Origin: Leucoraja ocellata
Taxonomy: Eukaryota
Assembly (NCBI GenBank): GCA_036785375.1
Contig: JAWMAR010001442.1
Coordinates: 1-64,000, forward strand
Reading direction: 5' to 3'
Length of the DNA: 64,000 nucleotides
Shown here: positions 1,151 to 60,925 of the stretch, piece after piece
How the letters are laid out: each line of letters opens with the position of its first letter
Numbering within the stretch: the stretch's first letter is position 1
Program-made: the position numbers and the translations under genes
Notes under the pieces: model-generated
Database searches by the model: none
What the model saw: only the letters and a program-made list of their open reading frames with translations
What the model was told of the DNA's origin: nothing

Positions 1151-4015
1151 TTTTTTTTCTTTTTCTTTTTCAAAAACTTTATTCGACACAGTCATATGAT
1201 ACAACAGATCAAAACATAATCAGAAATTACACTATATCAAATAATCATTATAGTACAAATGTGCATTCATTGTTTACAATACTCTCAACCCCACGCGGTG
1301 CCCAGCGCCCACGGAATACCTCCAGAGTCCCCGTGGACACCGCGTGTTCCCTCTCCAGGGACACACGTGCACGGACATAGGCCCGAAAGAGGGGCAGGCA
1401 TCCGACTCTAGCCTGACCCTCGACCGCCGCTGCCTGGACCCGCCAATGGCCATCTTGGCCAGGCCCAGGAGCAAACCGACAGGGAAGTCCCACTCCACCC
1501 CCCCTACTTGGCTCTCCCCACACACTGCCTTGTGTCCAAACACAAGAATCGTAGGACTAAAATGTAACCAGAGCTTGAGGAACAACCCTTTCATATATAT
1601 AACAATAGGAACAAACTCTCTTCCTGGCTGCAGAAAATACAGGTGGTAGACGAGTCCGTGAACCGACTCTAAAGTTTATTACATGCCACCGCTCTATGCA
1701 GCACTCTCCACCCCAGGTCCCCAATGTAAAGGGGGACAACTCCCTTATAGATGGACCCCCACTGGGGACCTTTCCCACCTTTGGGTGGGAACACAGACTG
1801 CCATGGTGTGTCAGGGCGGGAGATGAAGGCAAGGAGGTGCAGAAAGTACAAGAACATTCTGTACAGTGAGCGTCTCTTCGCATCACGAAACGGCATGCTG
1901 GTCATCTCAGAGAGGTGGCTCAGGTTGTGTGGAGCCGGTTCCCAGAAATTCCGAATATCCAGAGTCGAAGGCCCGATGAGCAGATCTGATGATGCGGGTG
2001 AAAGCTCATTCAGAACCACTCTAGGCACGCGCCTCTCCTCGACACTCGCCATGACAGAGTGAGGACCGGCCACTCCCGCAGCCGCAACATCCCCTTCCCC
2101 TCGTGGAGTGACACGCTGGCTGAAAACAGCCAAATTCCTCACTCTTAGCACATCCCAGTAGAAAACAGGCAAGCCCCTTAGGGCGGGTCGACTGATGCCC
2201 GCCACCGGGAGCCGTGAGACCCCCCCCCCCCCTTTAGGCAACGACCCCGACGGAAACAATACGTGGCCAAAGCATGCGATCTGGGGGGGTTCTCTACATA
2301 CATGTACCTCCGCAGAGTCCTGAGATGGAGAGCCGCCCACCTGGTACGCACGCATACCAAGGACTGGCCGCCTCCTCTAACGGGAGACTCAGAACCGCTG
2401 CGGAAACCCAGTGCTTCCTATTTCCCCAAAAGAAATCCACCAGCTTCCTCTGTAAAGCAGTTACAAATATGGAAGGTGGACAAGAGTAGCATAGTACCAT
2501 AACAGGAAGCCACCAGCTGGTTTATGACCAACACCCTCCCCTGAAAGGGTAGAACTCCAAGCAAGCCTGACAAGCTGCCCCAGCCTGGCCCAGTTTCGTT
2601 CACTCCTGCCCAATTTACGGCCATCATTCTCAGTGGGACTCAGGTGCACCCCCAGATAGAGGAGGTGCGTGGTGCTCCACGCAAACATTGCCATCTCCTC
2701 TGGCAGGGAGTCCACTGCCACTGACCCACTAAAGTCCAGAGCACTTTGCTCCAATTAATCCTTGCAAGATGCATCCGAGAAAAACTTCCGGCAATCACGC
2801 ATCCCTCCGCAGGTCACCAGGACCGGTGAACATAAGGAATACATCATCGGCATAGCCCTGGGCCCGGTAGGGCCAGGCCTGTCAATCTCCACCGAAGACA
2901 CAGGAATGGCTCCACACAGACCGAGTACAACTGACCCGACATGGGGCACCCCTGACCCCCCTCCCAAAATGAAAGGGAGCCAACAACGCACCATTAACCT
3001 TCACAAGGCACTCCGCTGCAGCATACAAAAGCCAGTACCCGAGCCACAAAATGCCGTCCAAATCCAAACGCTTGCAACATCCCGAAGAGGTATTCATGCT
3101 CTACCCTATCAAAAGCCTTCTCCTGATCAAGAGACAGAAACGCAGCTGACTGACCAGTACCCTGGGCTAGATGAATCAGTCCCTAACCAGGTGGATGTTA
3201 TCCTGAATGGACCGGCCAGGGGCTGTGTAGGACTGGTCAGGGTGAATCAGTTGAGACAGCACAGTGTCCAGGCGATTTGCCATCGCCCGTGCAAAAACTT
3301 TGTACTCTATACATGGGAGGGAGACCGGGCACCAGTACTTCACCAAGCGGAGTTGCCCCTTCTTGGGCAGCAAGACAACAACTGCTCTACGCCACGAGAG
3401 GGGCATCTCCCCTGTCGCCAGGTTCTCCCCCAGAACCAACATGTTGTCACCCCCCAGGATATCCCAGAAAGTTCTAACATACTTTACCGTCAACCCATCC
3501 AGCCCGGGGGGACTTACCCCTCCTGAGCTGATGCAATGCACGAGTCAACTCCTCCAAAGATAAGGGGCCATCAAGAAGATCGGTCACCTCCCTTTCTACA
3601 GTTGGTGGACCCTCCCACAGGTCCTGCTGAGCCTCCCCGCTGAATCCACCTGCGGGGAACAGGGACCCGTAAAAGGACCTGACCAGGGCACTAATCCTCT
3701 CCGGATCAGTGACAGAGGAGCCATCGTCTGCGAGAATCTCTACGACCTGTTTGCGGGCTCCCCGCCCTTTCTCCAGAGAGAAAAAGAAAGGTGAAGCTCA
3801 GTTCAGATCGTGCAGCATCTGGACCCGCGCCCTCACGTAAGCGCCTCGGGACCGCTCAAGTTGCAGGTTCCTCAAGGCTTCCTTCTTCTCCTGAATTCCG
3901 CATTCACAGGAATCATCACTAAACTGACCCAGGCGAGACTCTGCGTCCAGTAGCTCCCTCTCAAGCCTCTCGACCGCAGAGTCCTGCCGTCCGGTCGACC
4001 CCCACGTATATTCCT
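1150..4015 (-). mobile_element. Tx1-type (L1 clade) LINE, 5'-truncated and frameshifted
   Basis: RT-region peptides such as PLSWRRAVVVLLPKKG..WCPVSL..YKVFARAMANRL..IHPDQSYTAPGRSIQDNIHLVRD. The 3' end has AATAAA (1178-83) and an A-rich tail on the minus strand. Confidence 0.85.
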
Positions 4016-6376: not shown

Positions 6377-6387
6377 TTTATTTTATT
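6377..6387 (-). terminator. Polyadenylation signal(s) of membrane IgW mRNA
   Basis: Overlapping AATAAAATAAA about 590 nt past the TM2 stop. Confidence 0.6.
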
Positions 6388-6972: not shown

Positions 6973-6984
6973 TCATTGTTGCAC
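6973..6984 (-). CDS. IgW: IgW TM2 exon (cytoplasmic tail VQQ*)
   Basis: Acceptor ctttcctgtgtatattacag then GTG CAA CAA TGA, phase 0 matching TM1. It lies in unique sequence between repeats. Confidence 0.75.
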   Translation of the reverse strand: MQQ

Positions 6985-10957: not shown

Positions 10958-11097
10958 CTTGACAACAGTGACGAAGGTACTGTAGAGGAAACTGATAATG
11001 AACAGGAGGGCGAAGGCAGCAACTGTGAGCACATTGTCATCTCCATCCAAGTCCCCTGGCTCCACCTTCCCTTCCTCACCTGTCAATTCTGTGCCAG
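10958..11097 (-). CDS. IgW: IgW transmembrane exon TM1
   Basis: AGTELTGEEGKVEPGDLDGDDNVLTVAAFALLFIISFLYSTFVTVVK: acidic spacer plus the conserved antigen-receptor TM motif (FxxLFxxSxxYSTxVT), donor GTAACG. Confidence 0.94.
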
Positions 11098-12129
11098 CTT
11101 CAGGACAAATGAGAAGGTGAGACAGTTAGTTTGCCGCCGATGTTTTGTGAAGATCAACAACGTGTGAATAAAATGAAGGCAACAGGAGGACAGGAAGACA
11201 GGAGGCTTGGGTTAGTTCCACCGTTCAATGATATGTGGAGATCTATCACCAGCTCCACTGAGCTGACTTTCCCCCACATCCATTATCATCTCGTATAGTC
11301 AAACTCTGCAATCTCAGATATAAAATCACCTTCACACCTGGAACCAAATGCTAACTGTGGAAGGCAATTCCAAACTTCCATGAACCTCTGATAGACACAA
11401 AAAGCTGGAGTAACTCAGTTGCACAGGCAGTATCTCTGGAGAGAAGGAATGGGTGAGGTGTCGCATCGAGACCCTTCTTCAGATGCCATGACCCACTTCA
11501 TGTAGCATGGCTATCTCTAACTTTTAGACCCTGTACTTTGTATAGAGTTGGATTTCCATAAATCAGGGAGATCATTTGTAACCCAGGGAGCACTGTATAG
11601 AACTAAAAAATAATTCCTCCTCATCTAGTTAGTTTAGTTTATTGTCACGTGCACCAAGGTACAGTGAAATGCATTTGTTGCATGCTAACCATTCAGCGGA
11701 AAGGCAAAACATGATTACAAATGAGTCATTCACAGTGTATACATACATGATAAGGGATTAATGTTTAGTACAAGGTAAAACCAGTAAAGTCCAATCAAAG
11801 ATAGTCCAAGGGTCTCCAGTGAGGGAGATAGTAGTTCAGGACCACTCTCTGGATGTGGTGGGATGATTCAGTTGCCTGATAACAGCTGGGAAGAAACTGT
11901 CCCTGAATGTGGAGGTGTGTAAATAGATCTTCACAGGGTAATCTATTCTGTTAGCTCCCATTAACTTTGTGAAAACATCAAACAAAACTTCCTTTAGCCT
12001 TGTAAATGACAACTTGTTCAGCATCGTGAAAGTAAGCATGCAGGTAGGTACAGCAGGCAGTGAAGAAAGTGAATGGCATGTTGGCATTCATAACAAGAGG
12101 AGTTGAGTATAGGAGCAAACGTCCAGAAG

Positions 12130-12580
12130 CGAAAAATACTACAAAAAGTTCATTGCCCAGTTCATCGCTGGCATTGACCTCCCCACCGTCGAAGAGATCT
12201 ATCATAGTCGCTGCCTCAAAAAGGCAGCCAAAATCATCAAGGACCCACACCATCTTGGCCACACACTCATCTCACCATTGCCATCAGGAAGAAGTTACAG
12301 GAGCCTGAAAACTGTAACGTCCAGGTACTGGAACAGCTTCTTCCCTACAGCCATCAAGCTATTAAACACAATGAATAAGCTCTGAGCCCTGAACTGCAAA
12401 AGACTATATTATTGTTTGTTATTTGCACTATTTGTTATTTATTAAACTTTTTATTTTTTTCTCGTTCCCCGTTATGCACTATGTTTACATATTCACATAT
12501 TCTGTTGTGCTGCAGTAAGTAAGAATGTCCTTGTCCCGTCTGGGACATATGACAATAAAACACTCTTGACTCTTCTTGAC
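12130..12580 (+). mobile_element. Rex/Babar-type LINE 3' fragment
   Basis: Same sequence family as the 47742-47984 ORF (IIKDPHHPGH..LPSGRRYRS..RFRNS..PTAIRLLN) with (cttga)n tail. Related copies at 16750-17290 and 46840-48180. Confidence 0.75.
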
Positions 12581-12684
12581 TCACTCACACACTGCAACAC
12601 CTGTCCTTCAGTGCTAAACTTGCCTGGTCCTATTTTGTGACGGGGTAAAAGATGTGATGATTAGAGTGAATCCCAGCACCGTAC

Positions 12685-12954
12685 CTTGAAAGCTTTTCAC
12701 TTCCCGGCTGATACTGGTGTTCGAGGGGGGATGAGACACTGCACAGCCGAAGACTGAGCCTTTTTTCCAATCCTCTGAACTCACATTCAGGAAGTGGCTG
12801 GCACTGAAAGTCCCCCCTTGCTCCAGAGCAGTCGGTGTAGCGCTGGTGGTGGAGGAGATCGGGGCTCCGTCTTTCTCCCAAGTGACGTTTATGAGGTCCG
12901 GGTAGAAACCAGAGAGCACACACTCGAGGATGGCTGTGTGGCTGCGCTTGGTCT
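12685..12954 (-). CDS. IgW: Duplicated CH4-like exon (CH4'), 5'-truncated; pseudo-exon or used via a cryptic acceptor
   Basis: ETKRSHTAILECVLSGFYPDLINVTWEKDG...DWKKGSVFGCAVSHPPSNTSISREVKSFQ, donor GTACGG. The first ~13 codons and native acceptor of CH4 have no counterpart. The start given is an in-frame cryptic AAG acceptor at 12955-56. Confidence 0.7.
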
Positions 12955-12986
12955 CTTGGTGAGTAGATGTGAGAACCTCTTCCTCA

Positions 12987-13335
12987 AGGGCCTGTCCCAC
13001 ATACACAACTTTTTTGGCGACTGCCGGCACCCGTCATAGGTCGTTACAGGTCGCCGAAAAATTTAAACATGTTGAAAATCCAGCGGTGACCAGCACAAGG
13101 TATGACTATTTGACTCAAGGTACGACTACTCACGACCATACTGGCTTCACCCCGCTACATGTCACCAGGTTGTTGCCTCCATGGGCGTGAGTAGTCTCCT
13201 CAGTCGCCCAAGGAGTCGTAACGCCTTTCAGGTTGCCACTGAATTTTCAACATGTTGAAACTTTTTGGCGACCTACAATGACCTATGACGGGTGCCGGCC
13301 GTCACCGAAAAAGTTGCGTAAGTGGGAAAGGCCCT
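12987..13335. mobile_element. PIF/Harbinger-type MITE in the CH3'-CH4' intron
   Basis: TIRs agggcctgtcccac / gtgggaaaggccct, flanked by 3-bp TSD TCA...TCA. Confidence 0.85.
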
Positions 13336-13381
13336 TCATGGTAACTAATGTTGGCCGTATCATTGCCGATCTCTCGCCCAC

Positions 13382-13684
13382 CTTTGGCACTTTCTGTCCG
13401 TGCTGACACTGGTGAGGATGATGGAGATCGTTGGGCAGAGCACACAACCTCCACCCCGCTGGTCCACTCCTCCACACTGCTCCGGAGTTTACTGCTCACT
13501 CTGTCTTGGGTACTTTCTCCTCTCGGTTGGTGGGTCACAGCCCCTGTAGTTCTCTCCCTTCCGCTCACTTGCCAGTAGACTTGGACCTGGCTCAGATCAG
13601 CGCCCATTACCACGCACACCACAGTAGCGGTCTTGTTGATCCAAATCTCTTCAGTGGAGGGGTTTTGGATAAAGACAGACAATT
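13382..13684 (-). CDS. IgW: Duplicated CH3-like exon (CH3') downstream of the secretory polyA site
   Basis: ELSVFIQNPSTEEIWINKTATVVCVVMGADLSQVQVYWQVSG...EEWTSGVEVVCSAQRSPSSSPVSARTESAK, 303 nt (same length as CH3), intact AG/GT. Confidence 0.9.
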
Positions 13685-18219: not shown

Positions 18220-18225
18220 TTTATT
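18220..18225 (-). terminator. Polyadenylation signal of long secretory IgW mRNA
   Basis: AATAAA about 295 nt past the stop, followed by a GT-rich downstream element (tgtgtgcgtgtctgtgttttggg). Confidence 0.75.
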
Positions 18226-18517: not shown

Positions 18518-18903
18518 TTACACACAAGATTTAAAGCTGTCAGTCAGAACAAGTGAGACATTGACCAGGGTGGGTTTGCTGTGAGATTTATTGATGCTTC
18601 TGAATAGACTGGTTGTGATGGATCCATGTCCCACAACACAGGAGAAGGTGGTGCCACAGTTCCAGTCCTCTGGAGAAACCTTCAACTGACTGGTCATGGT
18701 GTTCCACCCATTCCTGGTGTCCTTGGTCACGGGCTGGTTCACGATCCCTGTCTTCAGAAGGGTGTCGTTGGCCATCCAGGCCACATAGATGTCTGCAGGA
18801 GAGAATTTGGTGACCAGGCACGTCAAGGTGGCCGTCTTATCCGTCTCCACCTCATCCAATGAAGGGGGGAGGAGGTAGACTTGAGGACGTATCTCAACTC
18901 CAT
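18518..18903 (-). CDS. IgW: IgW CH6 exon with secretory tailpiece
   Basis: DGVEIRPQVYLLPPSLDEVETDKTATLTCLVTKFSPADIYVAW...FSCVVGHGSITTSLFRSINKSHSKPTLVNVSLVLTDSFKSCV*. IgM-type tailpiece with NVS sequon and penultimate Cys. Confidence 0.95.
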
Positions 18904-21907: not shown

Positions 21908-22228
21908 CTGTCAGCTTCTTCAAAGATCTGCTCTCCGGTGTTGGCAAACTCTTGTCCTCCACAACACAGGTGTACAGAGCCCCACTCTCCCACTCTGCAG
22001 CGGGGACCGTCAGTCCGCTGGTGATGGTGTCTGTACCTCCGATCCTCTCTACACCACGAGTTGTCACCCCGTCTTCTCTCTTCATTTCATTCACTTGCCA
22101 GGTGACCCTGAATCCCTCTAAATCACCGTGAACCACCTTACACAGAATGGTGGCTGTCTTGTTGATCCAGATCTCTTCGAAGGAAGGTTTGCTTAAAGTG
22201 ACCGAGGGGCGGGTATCTGAACATTCAT
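21908..22228 (-). CDS. IgW: IgW CH5 exon
   Basis: DECSDTRPSVTLSKPSFEEIWINKTATILCKVVHGDLEGFRVTWQVN...EWESGALYTCVVEDKSLPTPESRSLKKLT, 321 nt, AG/GT, phase 1-1. Confidence 0.93.
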
Positions 22229-22982: not shown

Positions 22983-23226
22983 CTGGCATTAAGTACAAAG
23001 GCAGAGGGAAAGACCGTTTTGAAGAAGAGTATTGTGGATCTCCACCGTGTCTGGCCTGTCGACTGGCTTGGATTGCCCTCAAGTTACTAAAGCAATGTCA
23101 AAGATACAATTATTTCTGTGGCCAGATTCACTTACAAGCCCACAACAGGACTGCACCATGTTACAATGCTGCCCATGTGTGACACAGTTTACAATGTGGA
23201 GAATGGAGTGAATCCCAGGAGCCTAC

Positions 23227-23544
23227 CTTGGATGTTCTTCACATCCTTCGTGATGATGGTGTTGGAGGCGCGATGATACACTGTACAATTGAAACGTGAG
23301 CCTGACTTCCAATCCTCTGTACTCATGGTCAGGAAGTGGCTGGCACTGAAAGTGCCCCCCTGCTCCAGAGCAGTTGGTGCAGCGCTGGTGTTGTTGGAGA
23401 TCAGGGCACCGTCTTTACTCCAAGTGACGTTGATGAGGTCTGGGTAGAATCCAGAGACCACACACTCGAGGGTGACCTTGTGGCTATGCTTGGTCTCTTC
23501 GTGTGTTTGAAGCAGCAGTCTGACTTCAGGTTTATTTGGCTCAA
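23227..23544 (-). CDS. IgW: IgW CH4 exon
   Basis: Acceptor ttttgctctgttccag, VEPNKPEVRLLLQTHEETKHSHKVTLECVVSGFYPDLINVTWSKDG...DWKSGSRFNCTVYHRASNTIITKDVKNIQ, 318 nt, donor GTAGGC. Confidence 0.93.
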
Positions 23545-24090: not shown

Positions 24091-24393
24091 CTTTGTTATG
24101 GTTGGTCCGCGCTGACACTGGTGAGGATGATGAAGATTGTTGGGCGAAGCACACAAACTCCACCCCGCTGGTCCACTCCTCGACGCTGGTCCGGAGTTCA
24201 CTGGTCACAGGGTTTTGGGTGCCTTCATGGCTCGGTGTACGGGTCACAACTCCTTCACTTCTCTCCTTTCCTCCCACCTTCCAGGTGAGATGGACCTGGC
24301 TCGGATCACTACAGATCACTGAACACACCAGCGTAGCGGTCTTGTTGATCCAAATCTCTTTCATGCCAGGATTTTGAATGAAGACGGCCAATG
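24091..24393 (-). CDS. IgW: IgW CH3 exon
   Basis: ALAVFIQNPGMKEIWINKTATLVCSVICSDPSQVHLTWKVGG...EEWTSGVEFVCFAQQSSSSSPVSARTNHNK, 303 nt, AG/GT, phase 1-1. Confidence 0.93.
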
Positions 24394-24449: not shown

Positions 24450-24786
24450 AGGGCCTGTCCTGTCCCACTTACGCAACTTTTTCAGCGACTGCCGGCACCC
24501 GTCATAGGTCGTTGCAGGTCGCCCAAAATTTTCAACACGTTGAAAATCCAGCGGCGACCAGAGCAAGGTACGACTCATTGGGCGACTACTCATGACCATA
24601 CAGGCTTCACCTATGTCGGCAGGGTGTCACCTGTATGGTCGTGAGTATTCTCATCAGTTGCCCAAAGAGTCGTAGCGCCGGTCTGGTCGTAGCTGAATTT
24701 TCAACGTTAACATTTTTCAGTGACCTGCTGCGACTATGACAGGTGCTGGCAATCGCAGAATAAATTGCGTAAGTGGCTCAGGCTCT
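24450..24786. mobile_element. PIF/Harbinger-type MITE, same family as 12987-13335
   Basis: agggcctgtcc...cccact TIR and shared internal sequence gactgccggcacccgtcataggtcg. Confidence 0.8.
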
Positions 24787-27062
24787 TTATGGAAAGGCAG
24801 GGCAGAAATCCAAACAGGTGTCTCATAAAAGAACTTTAGATGTTTATGACATCACATAAAAGACTGATCAATGGCAGATCAAACTATAGACTGGCTAGAT
24901 TTATTGCAAACAGAATAGTAGAAAAACTTGTGTTAAATAGCAGGTTGAGTGTTTTGACTGAAAAAAAACAGAACAAAGGATCCGTCAACTGGGATTTGAC
25001 TCTCTTTCCCATCACCATGATCAGCTGGTACATTACAAGATACAAGATACAAGATACATTTAATTGTCATTTGGACCCCTTGAGGTCCAAACGAAATGCC
25101 GTTTCTGCAGCCATACATCGCTGTGATGGAAGGCCAAATAAACTTATCTCTCCACTGCACTCCCCCCCCCCCCCCCCCATGTCAGAGTCAGAGTCAAAGC
25201 CCCCGGCTGGCGATGGCGATTGTCCCGCGGTCATTAAAGCCACGCCGGGTGATGCAAGGTCGCACACCGGGTCTTGGTGTTAGAGCCCCCGGCGTGCACT
25301 CGCAGAGTCCCGCGGCCATTCCAAGCCGCGCGGGGCAGTGATGTAGGCCCCGCTCCAGGAGCTCTTCAACCCCGCAACTCGGGCGGGGGAAGTCGCTGTT
25401 GCGAGAGCCCTGAAAAGCGGTCTCCCTCCAGGGACCCGCGGGCTCCTGGTGCCGCCGTCCACAGACCCGCAGTTGGAGCCTCCGACTCTCCGGTCGGGCC
25501 GCAGCAGCAGCAGCAGCAGCAGCGCTCCTCCACCGCTCCACCCGCTCCGGACTCGGCCAGCCCCGCGACAGTGACGGTGAGTCGTAGCACCAGAGTCCCC
25601 GGTCTCTTCCTGTTGGAGGCCGCTCTTCGTTGCGGCCCCAACGACAACGGAAACCCGACAAGAAAAGGTCGGGTCTCCCGTGCAGGGAGAGATTTAAAAA
25701 GTTCCCCCCCCCCCCTCCCACCCCACCCCCGCCCCCCCACACACACACCCCAACAAAAAATAACAAAAACTACATAAAAACACAGACAGAAAATAATAAA
25801 ACGCGGACAGACTGCAGAGGCCGCTGCTGACCAGAGTCGCGCCGCCCACCGGACGGCATTACAGGGGCACAATTTGATATGTGCTTTGCTTGGAACCCCT
25901 GCTGCATCGATTAGTAATACTGAGCAACATGAATGAGAAAAGCAACTTTTTTCCCTGTAGGCCAAGCCTGTGATTCCCTCAGTTTAAAGAATGTCACATG
26001 CTGATATCACAGCCTTACTCTGACCATGTGTCTCACCATCTCTGAAACCTTCACCACAACACAACCTTCAGTAAAGGTGTCATTCTTCCAGCTCAGGGCA
26101 CTCGTAAACCTGCACTCCTTTCACCTTTGTACCACTTGCTGTGTCATGTTGCAGTGTTGCCCACAAACACCAAAACTCACTCAGCCACAGACTAGTGTCA
26201 GTTTAGTGTGACTGTGCTCCAGTGAAGACTTTGAGGCGTTTCAGTAATTGATAGAAATGATCAGAAATAAATTAGTGGCTGACTCTCCAGTGACAGCAGA
26301 GCAAATCATAAATGGTTAGAAGTATCAAGGTCCCTCTCCTGCTGCAGATTGGGATGAAATTCTGCATTAGATGTATTTTCCCGTTTCACATCAGAATCAT
26401 TGGGCGAGGAAGAGAATGATTTATTCATTCATTGCCCCTGACTGGCCTGCACTGCCACTTGTCTTCTGAAGCAGCATCATGAGTCTAATTGCACTCAGCT
26501 CACTCTTGTGTGTGCACTGTTTACACACTTAGTCACTTGGACCACATGAGCTAATTTTGCTCTCAAACACTTATTGTGGAGTGTGATTAGGTTTGTGTCA
26601 GAATTGAAACTTTCAGTGAGCCTGGAGATCAAAGCCTTCAGCTGCGTAGAAAGCAGAGTCTGTCTGACAGGAGACATAACATTTGTCAATGTAAGATGTT
26701 GTCTATTTCACAACCCCTCCTTCTTTAAGCAAAATGGTGAGCAAATTCCTTTCAAAAATAGTTATGTGCATGGTATTAGTGTGGATGACAGTGGTTGCAG
26801 AGTCATCAGAAATTTATAAGCCTAGTTTAACAGTGTGCAATGTTTTTGCTTTGTGAATCTTGTTTTAATCAGCAATGTGATATTGTTAAACATGTGTGTT
26901 TGCAAGATGCTCAATCCCGTCCCATATCAGTGACAGTCGTGTAGTTCCAGCATCGCGGTGTCGGGGGGAAACCGCCTCCTATGAAACCTGGCAGAGTATG
27001 GATACTCTCCATCCTGTCAAATGCTGGTATCTTCCACAAGAGACATTTTGTCTTGCTCATCC

Positions 27063-27587: not shown

Positions 27588-27715
27588 CTACTTTATTTCA
27601 CACTTTCCTGCCCAACAATGATACTGCTGGGTAGAACCATCTGAGAATGACACATTGAGATTACTCTGGTAGATGAACTTCGGCAGACACTTCGAACAGC
27701 CGGGACATTTTCCAC
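27588..27715 (-). CDS. IgW: Cys-rich secretory tail exon of short IgW
   Basis: Acceptor cttccatttccag, phase 1, GGKCPGCSKCLPKFIYQSNLNVSFSDGSTQQYHCWAGKCEIK*. This matches the C-terminus of skate short IgX as I recall it. Confidence 0.9.
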
Positions 27716-27942
27716 CTGGAAATGGAAGATTAATTGATTTAAATGTTAAGAGATTTTTACCTCCCGTGTTGAGGTTCACATATTCCCAGTCTGTGTCCTC
27801 AGTATTTATCAGCATATGATTATGCCGACCACGATAAACTGCTTCACTTTATCCAGGATCAGACAACACTTTAAAGAGTGTGGAGATGAGTTCAAAAATA
27901 ATCCAGGCACTGACATTTCAATGAAAGGGAAAGGGCAATCTA

Positions 27943-28453
27943 CAGGTGAGTTGGACAGTTTGGGTGAGTGGGCAGATGCATGGCAGATACAGTTTAATGT
28001 GGATAAATGTGAGGTAGCAAAAATAGGAAGGCAGATTACTATCTTAATTGGGTCAAGTTGGGAAATGGGGAAGTACAATGGGATCTTGGGGTTCTTGTTC
28101 ATCAGTCAATGAAAATAAGCATGCAGGTACTGCAGGGAGTGAAGAAAGCGAATGGCATGTTGGCCTTTATAACAAGAGGAGTTGAGTATAGGAGCAAAGA
28201 AGTCCTTCTGCAGTTGTACAGGGCCCTAGTAGAGACCACACCTGGAGTATTGTGTGCAGTTTTGGTCCCCTAATGCGTGGAAGGACATTCTTGCTATTGA
28301 GGGAGTGCAGCGTAGGTTCATCAGGTTAATTCCCTGATTGGCGGGACTGTCATGTGCTGAGAGAATGGAGCGGCTGGGCTTGTATACCCTGGAGTTTAGA
28401 AGGATGAGAGGATATCTTATTGAAACATATAAGATTATTAAGGGTTTGGACAC
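27943..28453 (+). mobile_element. CR1 fragment truncated at its 3' end, 48 bp from the CH1 donor
   Basis: CR1 ORF2 sequence stops abruptly at ...aagggtttggacac, whereas other copies (19380, 46260, 59380) continue gctagaggcagg... Confidence 0.85.
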
Positions 28454-28501
28454 TTTAGTTCTATCATCAGCTTTAAATGGACAACAAAATCTCACACTAA
28501 C

Positions 28502-28807
28502 CTTGAGGCTTCGGGAACGCCGTTATTACCATGTTGTCCAGCTTGGATCCTGCCATGCAGTAGTAGGTTTTCCTGTTCCAATCTGCTACAGAGACTCGCA
28601 GCAAGCTGCTCATTGTGTACTTGTTGTTTTGTCCCAACACTGGTGGGTACTTTGTGATTCCATTGTTGATGACCCCACTGCTGGTGGACCATGTCTGACT
28701 GATGACCTCAGGCAGGTAGTCCTTGACCAGACAGAGGATGCTGATCTCTTGGCCAGATTCGGTGTTGCAGGAAGAGGTTATGTGGACTGAAGGCAAAACC
28801 ACATCCT
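28502..28807 (-). CDS. IgW: IgW CH1 exon
   Basis: Acceptor tttccatttcag, EDVVLPSVHITSSCNTESGQEISILCLVKDYLPEVISQTWSTSSG...DWNRKTYYCMAGSKLDNMVITAFPKPQ, donor GTTAGT. C1-set domain, 306 nt, phase 1-1, with an extra N-terminal Cys suited to light-chain bonding. Matches skate IgX CH1 as I recall it. Confidence 0.95.
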
Positions 28808-30794: not shown

Positions 30795-31314
30795 AGCTGG
30801 GGGGAGGAGCTGGGTGCTGGGGGGAGGAGCTGGGTGTTGGGGGGAGGAGCTGGGTGTTGGGGGAGGAGCTGGGTGCTGGGGGGAGGAGCTGGGTGCTGGG
30901 GGGAGGAGCTGGGTGCTGGGGGGAGGAGCTGGGTGCTGGGGGGAGGAGCTGGGTGCTGGGGGGAGGAGCTGGGTGCTGGGGGGAGGAGCTGGGTGCTGGG
31001 GGGAGGAGCTGGGTGCTGGGGGGAGGAGCTGGGGGGAGGAGCTGGGTGCTGGGGGGAGGAGCTGGGTGCTGGGGGGAGAAGCTGGGTGCTGGGGGGAGGA
31101 GCTGGGTGCTGGGGGGAGGAGCTGGGTGCTGGGGGGAGGAGCTGGGTGCTGGGGGGAGGAGCTGGGTGCTGGGGGGAGGAGCTGGGTGCTGGGGGGAGGA
31201 GCTGGGTGCTGGGGGGAGGAGCTGGGTGCTGGGGGGAGGAGCTGGGTGCTGGGGGGAGGAGCTGGGTGCTGGGGGGAGGAGCTGGGAGCTGGGGGGAGGA
31301 GCTGGGTGCTGGGG
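30795..31314. repeat. G-rich 20-bp minisatellite (GAGCTGGGTGCTGGGGGGAG)n, about 26 copies, in the JH-CH1 intron
   Basis: Near-perfect tandem array visible directly in the sequence. Confidence 0.97.
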
Positions 31315-32231
31315 TGAGAAGGGGCAATAAACTGCCCGTCTGGGTTGCCATCCTGGGGGCATTTAGTGCCAATTGCATTGCTGGGTCAGGGGTCAGAAAT
31401 AGGCTCGACTGGGTAAGGACAATAGATCTCCTCCTCTGAGGGACAGCGGGGAAACTGAGAGGTCATCATTACTGTGGATTTGTGCACAAAATCCAGTTTA
31501 CTAGCAAAAGAAAATCTGACACTGGTCCAATCTGTCCCAGATTATGAACAAAGTTTAAATTCCACAGCTGTTACGGAATTAAACTGGGGTCTGATTGTAG
31601 CCTGATGCCCGTCCATTGGATCACTGTAACTGTGGTGTTTCGGACAACATTTTCCCCTCACCAGCGGTATGCCGATTCTGCTGTGTGCAGAGTGGATCCA
31701 CAGTCCCTCCTTTACAACACTGCTCTATTGTGAACATGCCTCACTGCCTGTGAAGCGCTCGGGAACACCATGAAAGGTGCTCTGTCAATCACTGAGATTC
31801 ACTGAGACACCAGCAGCCCTGGTTAATGGAACAAAGCACGTGTTGGACAAACCCAGTCAGTCGGCTGGCGGAGGAGGGCAGCAAATTAGAGCCGTGCCTC
31901 CATCTGTGAACTGGGAAAAAGCAGCTCTTTTGTGCAGCAAAACCCACGTCAAAAACACCAAGCAACTTGACTCAGAATCTAAACTATCCGCATCAGTGAA
32001 TTCACAATGAAGAATAAAAGGTATTGACTTACTAAGGATCTCTAAATGTTGAAATTCAATACTAGACGCAACGAAAACCTGGTGTACTAAACCCCACATC
32101 TACAGTAGAACCATGTACAACATTCTCTCATTACTTTCAAATCATTCATTATTGTGAACCTTTGTTTTTGAACCAGCATCAATGTGTTTTACAATCTAGA
32201 GAATGTTCTGTGTTCTGAAGCATTTACACAA

Positions 32232-34096: not shown

Positions 34097-34144
34097 CTGA
34101 AGTCACTGTCAGCGAGGTTCCTGCACCCCAGTATTCAAGATAGT
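34097..34144 (-). CDS. IgW: IgW JH segment
   Basis: YLEYWGAGTSLTVTS with the WGxG motif, followed by phase-1 donor GTAAGA. Confidence 0.96.
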
Positions 34145-34509: not shown

Positions 34510-34575
34510 AGTTTTTGTTCAGCTCTCCACCGCCGTGGGCCAGTATACACGGTGATTCACCGCCGCTCACAAACT
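34510..34575 (-). other. IgW: DH2 segment (TATACTGGCC, 34538-34547) with RSS-12 on both sides
   Basis: CACGGTG (34548-54), 12 nt, TCACAAACT (34567-75). On the other side CACGGCG (34537-31), 12 nt, ACAAAAACT (34518-10). Confidence 0.9.
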
Positions 34576-34902: not shown

Positions 34903-34981
34903 GGTTTTTGTATTGAGGAAGTCCCATCTCTCACACTGTGCCCCCCGTATAGTCACAGTGATTCACCGCCGTACAATAACC
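34903..34981 (-). other. IgW: DH1 segment (ACTATACGGGGGG, 34941-34953) with 5' RSS-12 and 3' RSS-22
   Basis: V-facing RSS: CACAGTG (34954-60), 12 nt, ACAATAACC (34973-81). J-facing RSS: CACAGTG (34940-34), 22 nt, ACAAAAACC (34911-03). No stop codon in any sense frame. Confidence 0.95.
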
Positions 34982-35228: not shown

Positions 35229-35526
35229 TCTCTCGCACAGTAATAGGTAGCCGTGTCGGCCAGACTCAGGCGGGTCATTTGGAGATAGACATTGCTGCTG
35301 TCCTTGGAAACAGTGAATCGGCCGCTGAAGGCGGGCGCGTAATCTTTGCCACCACCACTCCATATCACCGCCACCCACTCCAGCCCTTTCCCGGGGACTT
35401 GTTTCACCCAGCTCACGCCGTAGTCGCTGAGGCTGAACCCGCTGGTTACACAGGTCAGTTTGAGGGACTCTCCAGACTTTGCCGCCTCGGTCGGTTTCTG
35501 ATTCAGCACGACCGCGGATCGAACGC
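35229..35526 (-). CDS. IgW: IgW VH segment (unrearranged, open frame)
   Basis: Acceptor ttttattggcag, then [99 protein letters not shown]. Canonical Cys, Trp and YYC present. Confidence 0.97.
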
Positions 35527-35660: not shown

Positions 35661-35706
35661 CTGGCAGACAGGACAGAAGGAGACAGAGATAAGCAGCGAC
35701 CCCCAT
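35661..35706 (-). CDS. IgW: IgW heavy chain leader (signal peptide) exon
   Basis: ATG at 35706-35704 gives [15 protein letters not shown](G), 46 nt, phase-1 donor GTGGGT. The intron to the V exon is 134 bp. Confidence 0.93.
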
Positions 35707-36519: not shown

Positions 36520-37413
36520 CAAGCTACAACAGCCAGTCGTGATGCTATGAATGAAGTCCATCTACGCCTATATCAGCGACAATCTACAACAATGTATGAC
36601 CATACCGGCGACATGCAACGACCATACTAACGACATGCTACGATCATACCGGCGACATGCTATGACCATACTAACGACATGCTATGACCATACCGGTGAC
36701 ATGCTACGACAGCTGGCAACCATCGGCAACAGTTGACGTGACTAGCTACACCAGGCTACGATAGTGGCTCCTTCATGAGTCTCCTTTTTCTCCAGGAGAC
36801 GGCCCACCCAGTGTCTTTGGCTCCTGAAACAGCTCAGGGGGAAGCCTGGTGAAGTGTCTGAAGGCAGCCTCATCTTCTTGCTGGAGCTCAGTCATCAGGT
36901 TGTCATACTGGCCCTGGGTCTCGACAGGGACAAGGGCATCAACCACACACACACCTCTACTTGGACTTCCTCTTACCCATTCTTCTTGTCCTTCTGTCTT
37001 GCTGATCTTTAAGCATGAGGGCTGCTGCAAGCAGCAGGGCTTCTTCATGTGAGAGCAATGTCCTCAGATGTTGGAAACAATACATCCCCTTTTGTAACTG
37101 GGTGATTCCATTGTTTTGGAGGCCAAAATGACATGAATTGTCTTCAGTTGTCTCCGACAGTCGTAACTTGTCGTGGACGTAGGTTGACTTCGGTTGTCGC
37201 CTGTGTGGTCGTAGATTGTCGTAGGTGGACGTCCCAAGTCACGACGATTGGGTCGCCGGTTGTCGGTAGCTTGCGTTAGCTTGACTTCGACTCGGTGGTA
37301 TGTTGTTGGAGTTTGTCGTAGACATTGTTGTGGGGGGGTCAAGTCGCCGGTTTTTCGGCTGCATTCTACGACTATGACAGTTGCAGGCAGTCGCCTAAGT
37401 GGGACATGCCCTT
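36520..37413 (-). mobile_element. Harbinger transposon remnant with transposase N-terminal fragment
   Basis: GQYDNLMTELQQEDEAAFRHFTRLPPELFQE resembles the Harbinger transposase N-terminus. End aagtgggacatgccct-taa. Confidence 0.7.
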
Positions 37414-60574: not shown

Positions 60575-60925
60575 AGGGCCTGTCCCACTTTCCCAAATTA
60601 TTCACAAATTTTCCTGAATTATTCATGATTTCTTCCGAGTTTTCAAACTCGCAGAATGTCCGTAGTGAGTCCGTTGGAGGCGGTAGGAGTCTGTCGATAT
60701 ATTGTAGCGGCTCGGTATGCCAGCCGTAGGTACTCGGGACATCATGTAAGTTTTTTCAGCATGATGAAAAATGTTCACGAGTGAAAAGTTAGCCCTGAGT
60801 ACCTAAGGCTGGCATAACGAGCCACTACGATATATCATGGCCTCCTACGGACTTGTTACGAATATTCTGCGAGTTTGAAAACTTGGGAGAATTTGTGAAT
60901 AGCTTGGGAAAGTGGAACAGGCCCT
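60575..60925. mobile_element. PIF/Harbinger-type MITE
   Basis: TIRs agggcctgtcccactttccca / tgggaaagtggaacaggccct. Confidence 0.8.

Follow-up and report, generated by a model that had tools for sequence, protein, structure and literature searches.

In the textbook scheme, the B-cell receptor and the secreted antibody share their constant domains and differ in the tail or through the skipping of domains. In the immunoglobulin heavy-chain genes the secretory polyA site competes with splicing to the transmembrane (TM) exons, and exons lying past that site enter read-through transcripts only; the mammalian M1 spacers and the long EMPD of IgE are extracellular segments that, being chosen by the polyA site, belong to the receptor form alone. 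Among the systems closest to the locus considered here, the pertinent papers describe the alternative splicing of shark IgW into membrane forms of 2 or 4 CH domains (PMC4279169; PMC5192425), nurse shark IgW clusters of six to eight CH exons along with C2-C3 tandem repeats in UrIg2 (PMC6795676; PMC12227049), and the coelacanth IgW1, in which four C3-C4-C5 units are located between the secreted exons and the TM (PMC5192425, citing Saha et al., 2014); bioRxiv 10.1101/2022.06.22.497154 belongs to the same set of sources on shark IgW TM forms, multi-CH clusters, and coelacanth IgW1. The function of IgW is called unknown in the reviews consulted.

The DNA that we analyzed, a stretch of 64 kb from Leucoraja ocellata (hereafter the window), contains a single Ig heavy-chain cluster, which lies on the minus strand amid LINE/SINE-type repeats. 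We assign the cluster to skate IgW because its C exons are 93–99% identical to the IgW gene model XP_055522228 of Leucoraja erinacea; shark IgW cDNAs also gave clear matches to the C domains of the window. The variable part comprises a leader exon (35661..35706, with the ATG at 35706 and a GT donor), a VH exon (35229..35526; 96% to XP_055522228) followed by a 23-RSS with 0+1 mismatches, D1 (34941..34953; 12/22 RSS), D2 (34538..34547; 12/12 RSS, weaker), and a JH with a 23-RSS and a GT donor (34097..34144), all of them open and with recognisable RSS; this composition, before one C region, is that of an IgW cluster, with its one V, 2–3 D, and one J. There follow CH1 (28502..28807; 93% to the XP_055522228 CH1), a Cys-rich short secretory exon of the IgW-short type (27588..27715), whose tail matches those of the nurse shark secreted IgW (P0052, P0054) and of Hemitrygon P0058, CH3 (24091..24393), which has the extra Cys27, CH4 (23227..23544; 318 nt), CH5 (21908..22228), and CH6 (18518..18903), which exon carries the canonical secretory tail and a stop; the polyA signal of the long secreted form, with a GT-rich tract after it, is at 18220..18225. 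Beyond that signal are a second CH3-CH4 pair (CH3' and CH4'), TM1 (10958..11097; intact and starting with AGT, as in Rhinoraja), TM2 (6973..6984), whose VQQ-stop agrees with the C-termini of related models, and a last polyA signal at 6387, so that the IgW-orthologous C domains, the canonical tail on CH6, the Cys-rich short secretory exon, and both TM exons are present. No further V, J, CH1, CH5, CH6, or TM occurs in the 64 kb, which result rules out that the second pair is the remnant of a second cluster, and no second Cys-rich secretory exon was found near CH4 or CH4' in the window.

The CH1–CH6 set is nevertheless incomplete: CH1 is not followed by CH2, and a tblastn search with the Leucoraja CH2 found no such exon in the window cluster, returning only paralogous domains at ≤35%, the top match being CH4' itself at 35%. 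The interval that separates CH1 from the Cys-rich secretory exon (27716–28501), where CH2 is missing, contains a LINE-like fragment (27940–28452). The Triakis IgW sequence P0049 is likewise devoid of CH2, and we therefore regard the window cluster as an aberrant cluster and not as a separate isotype. As there is no CH2 exon, the window cluster would encode its short secreted product as V-CH1-tail; and, with CH2 missing as well, the cluster may be decaying as a whole.

Some other features of the window are recorded in their own right. The J-CH1 intron harbors a 20-bp minisatellite of 26.5 copies (30796–31318) with switch-region-like words and an AGCT density of 53 per kb versus 4 per kb window-wide, whose G-rich strand is the antisense one, which orientation we take to be opposite to that of the mammalian S regions. 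CH4 reads LLLQTH at 23505–23510, in place of the LLPAH or LPPPH of most relatives, and the same variant is found in one of the two CH4 copies of L. erinacea XP_055522228. Decayed ORF fragments on the minus strand at 1250–3800 are presumably reverse-transcriptase-like and derived from a non-LTR retrotransposon. The start of TM1 (11097–11080) is without Cys in the skates (the window and Rhinoraja), the Cys being present in Pristis, Mobula, and Hemitrygon, so that a possible membrane-proximal interchain link would be missing in skates. Damage to the TM1 acceptor, which the ray sequences had led us to suspect, was discarded because the Rhinoraja TM1 begins at the same residue.

The pair beyond the tail, whose domains we designate B (3B, 4B) as opposed to the A type of CH3 and CH4 (3A, 4A), is located 4541 nt past the CH6 polyA signal (18225) and 1588 nt ahead of TM1. 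CH3' (13382..13684, minus strand) is an intact phase-1 exon with a Pfam C1-set domain, an open frame, AG/GT ends, and a pyrimidine tract of 15/20; of 300 nt, 230 are identical to CH3, and at position 27 the extra Cys is replaced by a Gly, which we take to be that of the common C-x-V-x-G-F-x-P motif. The similarity of the pair to CH3 and CH4 exceeds by far what chance would give (blastn E 1e-68 and 5e-80). The first-pass annotation had considered the two exons paralogues of CH3 and CH4, with CH3' equal in length to CH3, with similar donor-side introns after both members of each couple, and with the pair lying between the CH6 polyA signal and TM1. The exon ends (13684–13382 and 24393–24091, 303 nt each), the sequence comparison of the introns, and the mapped coordinates bear out the last three points, and the reported absence of the extra Cys from CH3' (VCVVMGAD versus VCSVICSD) is correct; the paralogy stands in full for CH3', but CH4' is 5'-truncated and thus not a complete exon. 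Just past the donors of CH4 and CH4' (23207–23226 and 12665–12684), a 13-nt intronic motif is identical despite a dS of about 0.38 between the coding copies, and the motif past the donor in the read-through of the ray CH4B contig P0059 looks similar; that motif is a possible splicing element.

We propose that CH3' and CH4' represent an old batoid duplicate whose likely role is that of a membrane-proximal module in the IgW receptor, and whose CH4' is broken in the window copy, a reading to which we assign a probability of about 0.6. The position of B, the paralogue clade that it forms, its conservation, and the lesion in CH4' were observed directly.

Relatives were collected as 61 proteins by protein searches plus a cluster look-up. 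The CH3 tree was built from 49 distinct domains, each species being represented by one protein or a few; this tree did not include Pristis P0002 or most of the isoforms, and an earlier tree with P0002 gave the same B clade. The sharks are separated from a batoid clade (99/96) with two subclades, A of 22 rows (support 89/78) and B of 13 rows (99/97), the window CH3 falling into the former and CH3' into the latter. Clade B spans four batoid orders, with skates, Narcine, Pristis, and Mobula, and includes none of the 14 shark rows among the retrieved sequences, from which topology we date the duplication to the interval between the divergence of sharks from rays and the radiation of the batoids. 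A recent local duplication restricted to skates was rejected in the AU test, where forcing all the skate CH3 together (32 rows) resulted in a p-AU of 0.001; the A–B dS mentioned above also argues against such an event. In the CH4 tree the batoids are set apart from the sharks, and B is not resolved as one clade. The extra Cys occurs in 20 of the 22 A rows and in 17 of 18 distinct shark IgW CH3, is also gone in the Narcine A domain, and is missing from all 13 B rows; since most A and shark CH3 keep that residue and every B row is without it, the loss is a derived trait of B.

Regarding the architecture of the TM forms in other batoids, the evidence consists of automated RefSeq gene models, and 37 batoid proteins were tabulated. 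Rhinoraja XP_078251664 (P0028) is arranged as CH1-CH2-3A-4A-CH5-CH6-tail-3B-4B-TM, and in Pristis XP_051882932 (P0001) two B pairs separate the CH6 tail from the TM; CH4B is intact in both, and both models read through the CH6 tail, so that two batoid orders share the post-CH6 position. With CH exons situated between the secretory polyA site and the TM in the window and in these two models, the post-tail CH3-CH4 arrangement is real and appears to be a conserved batoid feature. Among the batoid models with CH and TM, 13 of 16 end in 3B-4B-TM, two in 4A-TM (P0012, P0016), and one in CH2-TM (P0011); because Mobula birostris alone contributes 10 of those 13, as isoforms belonging to three accession blocks, the figure stands for about four species and not for 13 events. 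In the M. birostris set of 14 isoforms, B is present in 10 of the 11 TM forms and in none of the three secretory ones, the A pairs being kept in both. Models ending in CH5-CH6-tail are without B in 10 of 12 instances (the other two being Pristis P0004 and Rhinoraja XP_078269577), and the one spliced transcript contig recovered from a skate, P0008 of 2252 nt, represents a secretory form devoid of B; no transcript of the window cluster itself was encountered among the sequences retrieved. The protein and transcript sequences searched included no batoid TM cDNA and, likewise, no B-containing cDNA; a whole-library search gave four matches, one of them a 1628-aa multi-stretch protein at 36%, which was set aside. 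The CH3-CH4 pairs number up to 6 in Mobula and Pristis and 3 in Chiloscyllium, the extra pairs of the latter lying before CH5. The batoid models P0001–P0004 and P0012–P0026, with up to six such pairs in 1200–1700 aa, are annotated as "titin-like" or uncharacterised and exceed the forms of 2–8 CH named in the IgW reviews consulted.

That the exons would serve transcripts reading through to the TM, as the first-pass annotation had inferred, is thus favored by the order kept in Rhinoraja and Pristis and by the predominance of B-to-TM endings, but four models run counter to that proposal: B is upstream of CH5-CH6 in Pristis P0004, in Rhinoraja XP_078269577, and in the first half of Pristis XP_051882932 (three CH3B), and is interleaved with A pairs in Pristis P0002. 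These models may represent real exon orders or sequences stitched across tandem clusters. If the orders are real, B might be a general-purpose CH3-CH4 cassette derived from tandem expansion and used in secreted and membrane forms depending on the cluster, with the post-polyA position being one arrangement among several, an explanation that we consider rather unlikely. Besides the four models (P0001, P0002, P0004, P0005), the free expansion of CH3-CH4 pairs in elasmobranchs is compatible with that explanation, as is Narcine P0007, whose read-through ends after 4B; furthermore, a secreted read-through form could be terminated by the AATAAA motifs at 12455 and 12443, which follow the CH4' donor by about 230 nt, but both hexamers are within a dispersed repeat (12125–12571). 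A cassette of general use is, moreover, difficult to reconcile with the finding that a B-type CH4 directly precedes CH5 in none of the 14 batoid models with CH5, with the scarcity of B in the CH6-tail models including the contig P0008, and with the post-CH6 position common to two orders.

The comparison of A with B in the window by the Nei–Gojobori method with bootstrap, which averages both branches, yielded a dN/dS of 0.64 (0.34–1.11) for CH3, an interval that includes 1, and of 0.49 (0.26–0.93) for CH4, the pooled value being 0.57 (95%, 0.37–0.87). Neutral evolution of the copies, which the first-pass annotation had named as one outcome that would speak against its proposal, is accordingly disfavored by the pooled estimate but not by CH3 alone. 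With respect to Rhinoraja XP_078251664, the identities of the window domains are 83% for 3A, 88% for 4A, 92% for 3B, and 88% for 4B, against 74% for CH1, 87% for CH5, 94% for CH6, and 91% for TM1; the identities of the B pair, together with the pooled dN/dS below 1, point to purifying selection on the duplicate. The ratio of window-derived to Rhinoraja-derived changes is 9 to 4 in B (not significant) and, similarly, 13 to 8 in A. Judged from these sequences, then, the constraint on B has been no weaker than that on A.

This conservation bears on a second alternative, which we hold to be improbable: that B is hardly or never spliced in, its exons being relics that gene conversion keeps alike and that homology-driven prediction adds to the models, and that membrane IgW is CH2-TM or 4A-TM as in sharks. 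The tolerance of the window copy to the loss of the CH4' acceptor, the existence of the 4A-TM and CH2-TM models (P0012, P0016, P0011), and the lack of B-containing cDNAs among the sequences searched would fit with such relics. The sharks would fit as well, since the retrieved TM forms (Squalus, Mustelus, Chiloscyllium, and one more) have ordinary CH3/CH4, and the TM and secreted forms of Mustelus (P0044/P0048) share those domains. In opposition stand a conservation of B not inferior to that of A between two skate genera, the pooled dN/dS, and the open CH3B frames in 17 of 17 distinct sequences from four orders, the latter count being biased in that only predicted proteins are visible.

In the window copy, CH3' is intact but CH4' (12685..12961, minus strand) is not. 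The latter retains an open frame, both canonical Cys, and an intact donor at 12685, but its identity to CH4 is clear only from about 12964, so that CH4' has lost its acceptor along with some 41 coding nucleotides, namely the first ~14 codons, corresponding to strand A; in an alignment to solved chains, the lost residues match the first strand (A) of IgG CH3 and CL domains. From the CH3' donor to the start of CH4' there are 68 nt of other sequence plus a 349-nt MITE, and the intact exon alone would need 41 nt there. That space is occupied by a 46-nt 5' remnant of the CH3'-CH4' intron (13336..13381), the MITE (12987..13335), which is palindromic and has terminal inverted repeats, a short non-coding body, and an exact 3-bp flanking target duplication, its family being presumably PIF/Harbinger-like, and a 25-nt 3' intron remnant (12962..12986) that is probably the old branch-point region. 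Of this last remnant, 20 nt align (13/20) to the CH3-CH4 intron just ahead of its pyrimidine tract, with a shuffle p of 0.026 for the 20 nt and of 0.09 for all 25, which resemblance suggests that a deletion of ~55 nt removed the tract, the AG, and the 41 nt of the CH4' exon; an origin of the remnant in another repeat was rejected, as there is no match in the window. The lesion is most simply explained by that deletion and an independent insertion of the MITE, and, since the window copy exhibits no significant acceleration, either the lesion probably arose recently or homogenisation between clusters has acted on the exons. Related MITE copies are found at 24456–24795 and 60576–60924, with one repeat end at 37411, and one copy of the family reaches to within about 60 nt of the CH3 acceptor on the upstream side.

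Five in-phase AGs keep the CH4' frame open, four of them preceded by 7–9/20 pyrimidines; the best one, at 12956–12955, has 14/20 pyrimidines with 6 T, as against 11–16 pyrimidines with 8–13 T in the native acceptors, and would yield a 270-nt exon without strand A, which probably would not fold. There is very little chance that the deletion once created a working fused CH3'-linker-CH4' exon, or that splicing at the cryptic AG saves a shortened CH4' as an altered but functional membrane module: although the 68-nt gap, minus the MITE and one copy of the 3-bp duplication, is in frame and stop-free, this AG is the first past the putative branch point and in phase, and TM1 here also has an AAG acceptor, such a gap would, by our estimate, be expected in about 1 of 8 cases by chance, read-through from CH3' into the present MITE stops after 26 codons, the cryptic tract is poor in T, and the product would be without the strand matching strand A of IgG CH3. 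The window copy is partly decayed and exhibits the B module in the process of being lost.

Under the proposal that B is the membrane-proximal module of the receptor, cleavage at the CH6 polyA site in the plasma cells would generate, from intact clusters, V-CH1-CH2-(3A-4A)n-CH5-CH6-tail, and in the B cells read-through would be followed by the skipping of CH5-CH6 and the splicing of 4A (or CH2) to 3B-4B-TM1-TM2, with B replacing CH5-CH6 beside the membrane. In the window copy CH4' would likely be skipped, or else included through the weak cryptic AG; since all the exons are in phase 1, the splicing of CH1, CH4, or CH3' to TM1 could still produce an in-frame membrane mRNA, but the clean two-domain membrane Fc that had been described is impossible there, the CH4' acceptor and strand A being lost. 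The further claim that the receptor and the secreted antibody would use Fc domains with different disulphide patterns is right in that CH3' is without the extra Cys, but the A pair remains upstream of B in the Mobula and Narcine models. With CH5-CH6, and not CH3-CH4, being the domains that B replaces, the receptor would retain the extra Cys unless CH2 were spliced to CH3'; a different disulphide pattern would follow only from direct CH2-3B splicing, a junction present in three gene models. In a broader formulation, to which we would give slightly less than even odds, each IgW cluster has encoded since the origin of the batoids a receptor-only, Cys-free CH3-CH4 pair chosen by the polyA site—in the boldest version joined as CH2-3B to constitute a separate Fc—so that the two products of one gene would terminate in different whole Ig domains. 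Such a pair would be convergent with the coelacanth IgW1, and some clusters, the one in the window among them, would have lost it or be in the course of losing it.

Were B reserved for the receptor, selection on the B-cell receptor (CD79 coupling, spacing, dimer geometry) would be separated from selection on the effector Fc, and B would provide a primer or antibody handle for distinguishing membrane from secreted IgW. The pair also points to very long IgW chains of batoids unrecognised under the above annotations. The window copy, a module loss in progress, matters less here than the layout across the lineage. In the titles and abstract openings of the literature consulted we found no batoid post-tail CH3-CH4 pair, but Zhang 2013, Rumfelt 2004 (J Immunol), Anderson 1999, and Saha 2014 could describe the layout, whose novelty is therefore provisional and whose precedent is the coelacanth IgW1.

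The mammalian M1 spacers and the IgE EMPD are short, whereas B consists of whole Ig domains. The shark IgW membrane forms (Squalus P0045, Mustelus P0048) resemble those of the batoids in that the TM comes after a CH4-type domain and CH5-CH6 are skipped, and shark IgW shares with the window cluster the Cys-rich short secretory exon and the canonical long tail; but in sharks a single CH3/CH4 pair serves both forms, whereas batoids possess a separate pair past the secretory tail. The nurse shark IgW and UrIg2 have in common with B a tandem duplication of two CH exons in an elasmobranch antigen-receptor gene, although in the accessible text of PMC6795676 and PMC12227049 the duplicates are not placed past the secretory tail. 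Closest is the coelacanth IgW1 as described in PMC5192425: there, too, duplicates of the gene's own middle CH domains lie after the secreted exons and before two TM exons, but as four tandem C3-C4-C5 units in a bony-fish locus with many V and J, in contrast to the one or two C3-C4 pairs of a single-V cluster in batoids; and, since the duplication in batoids is younger than their divergence from sharks, the two arrangements likely originated independently.
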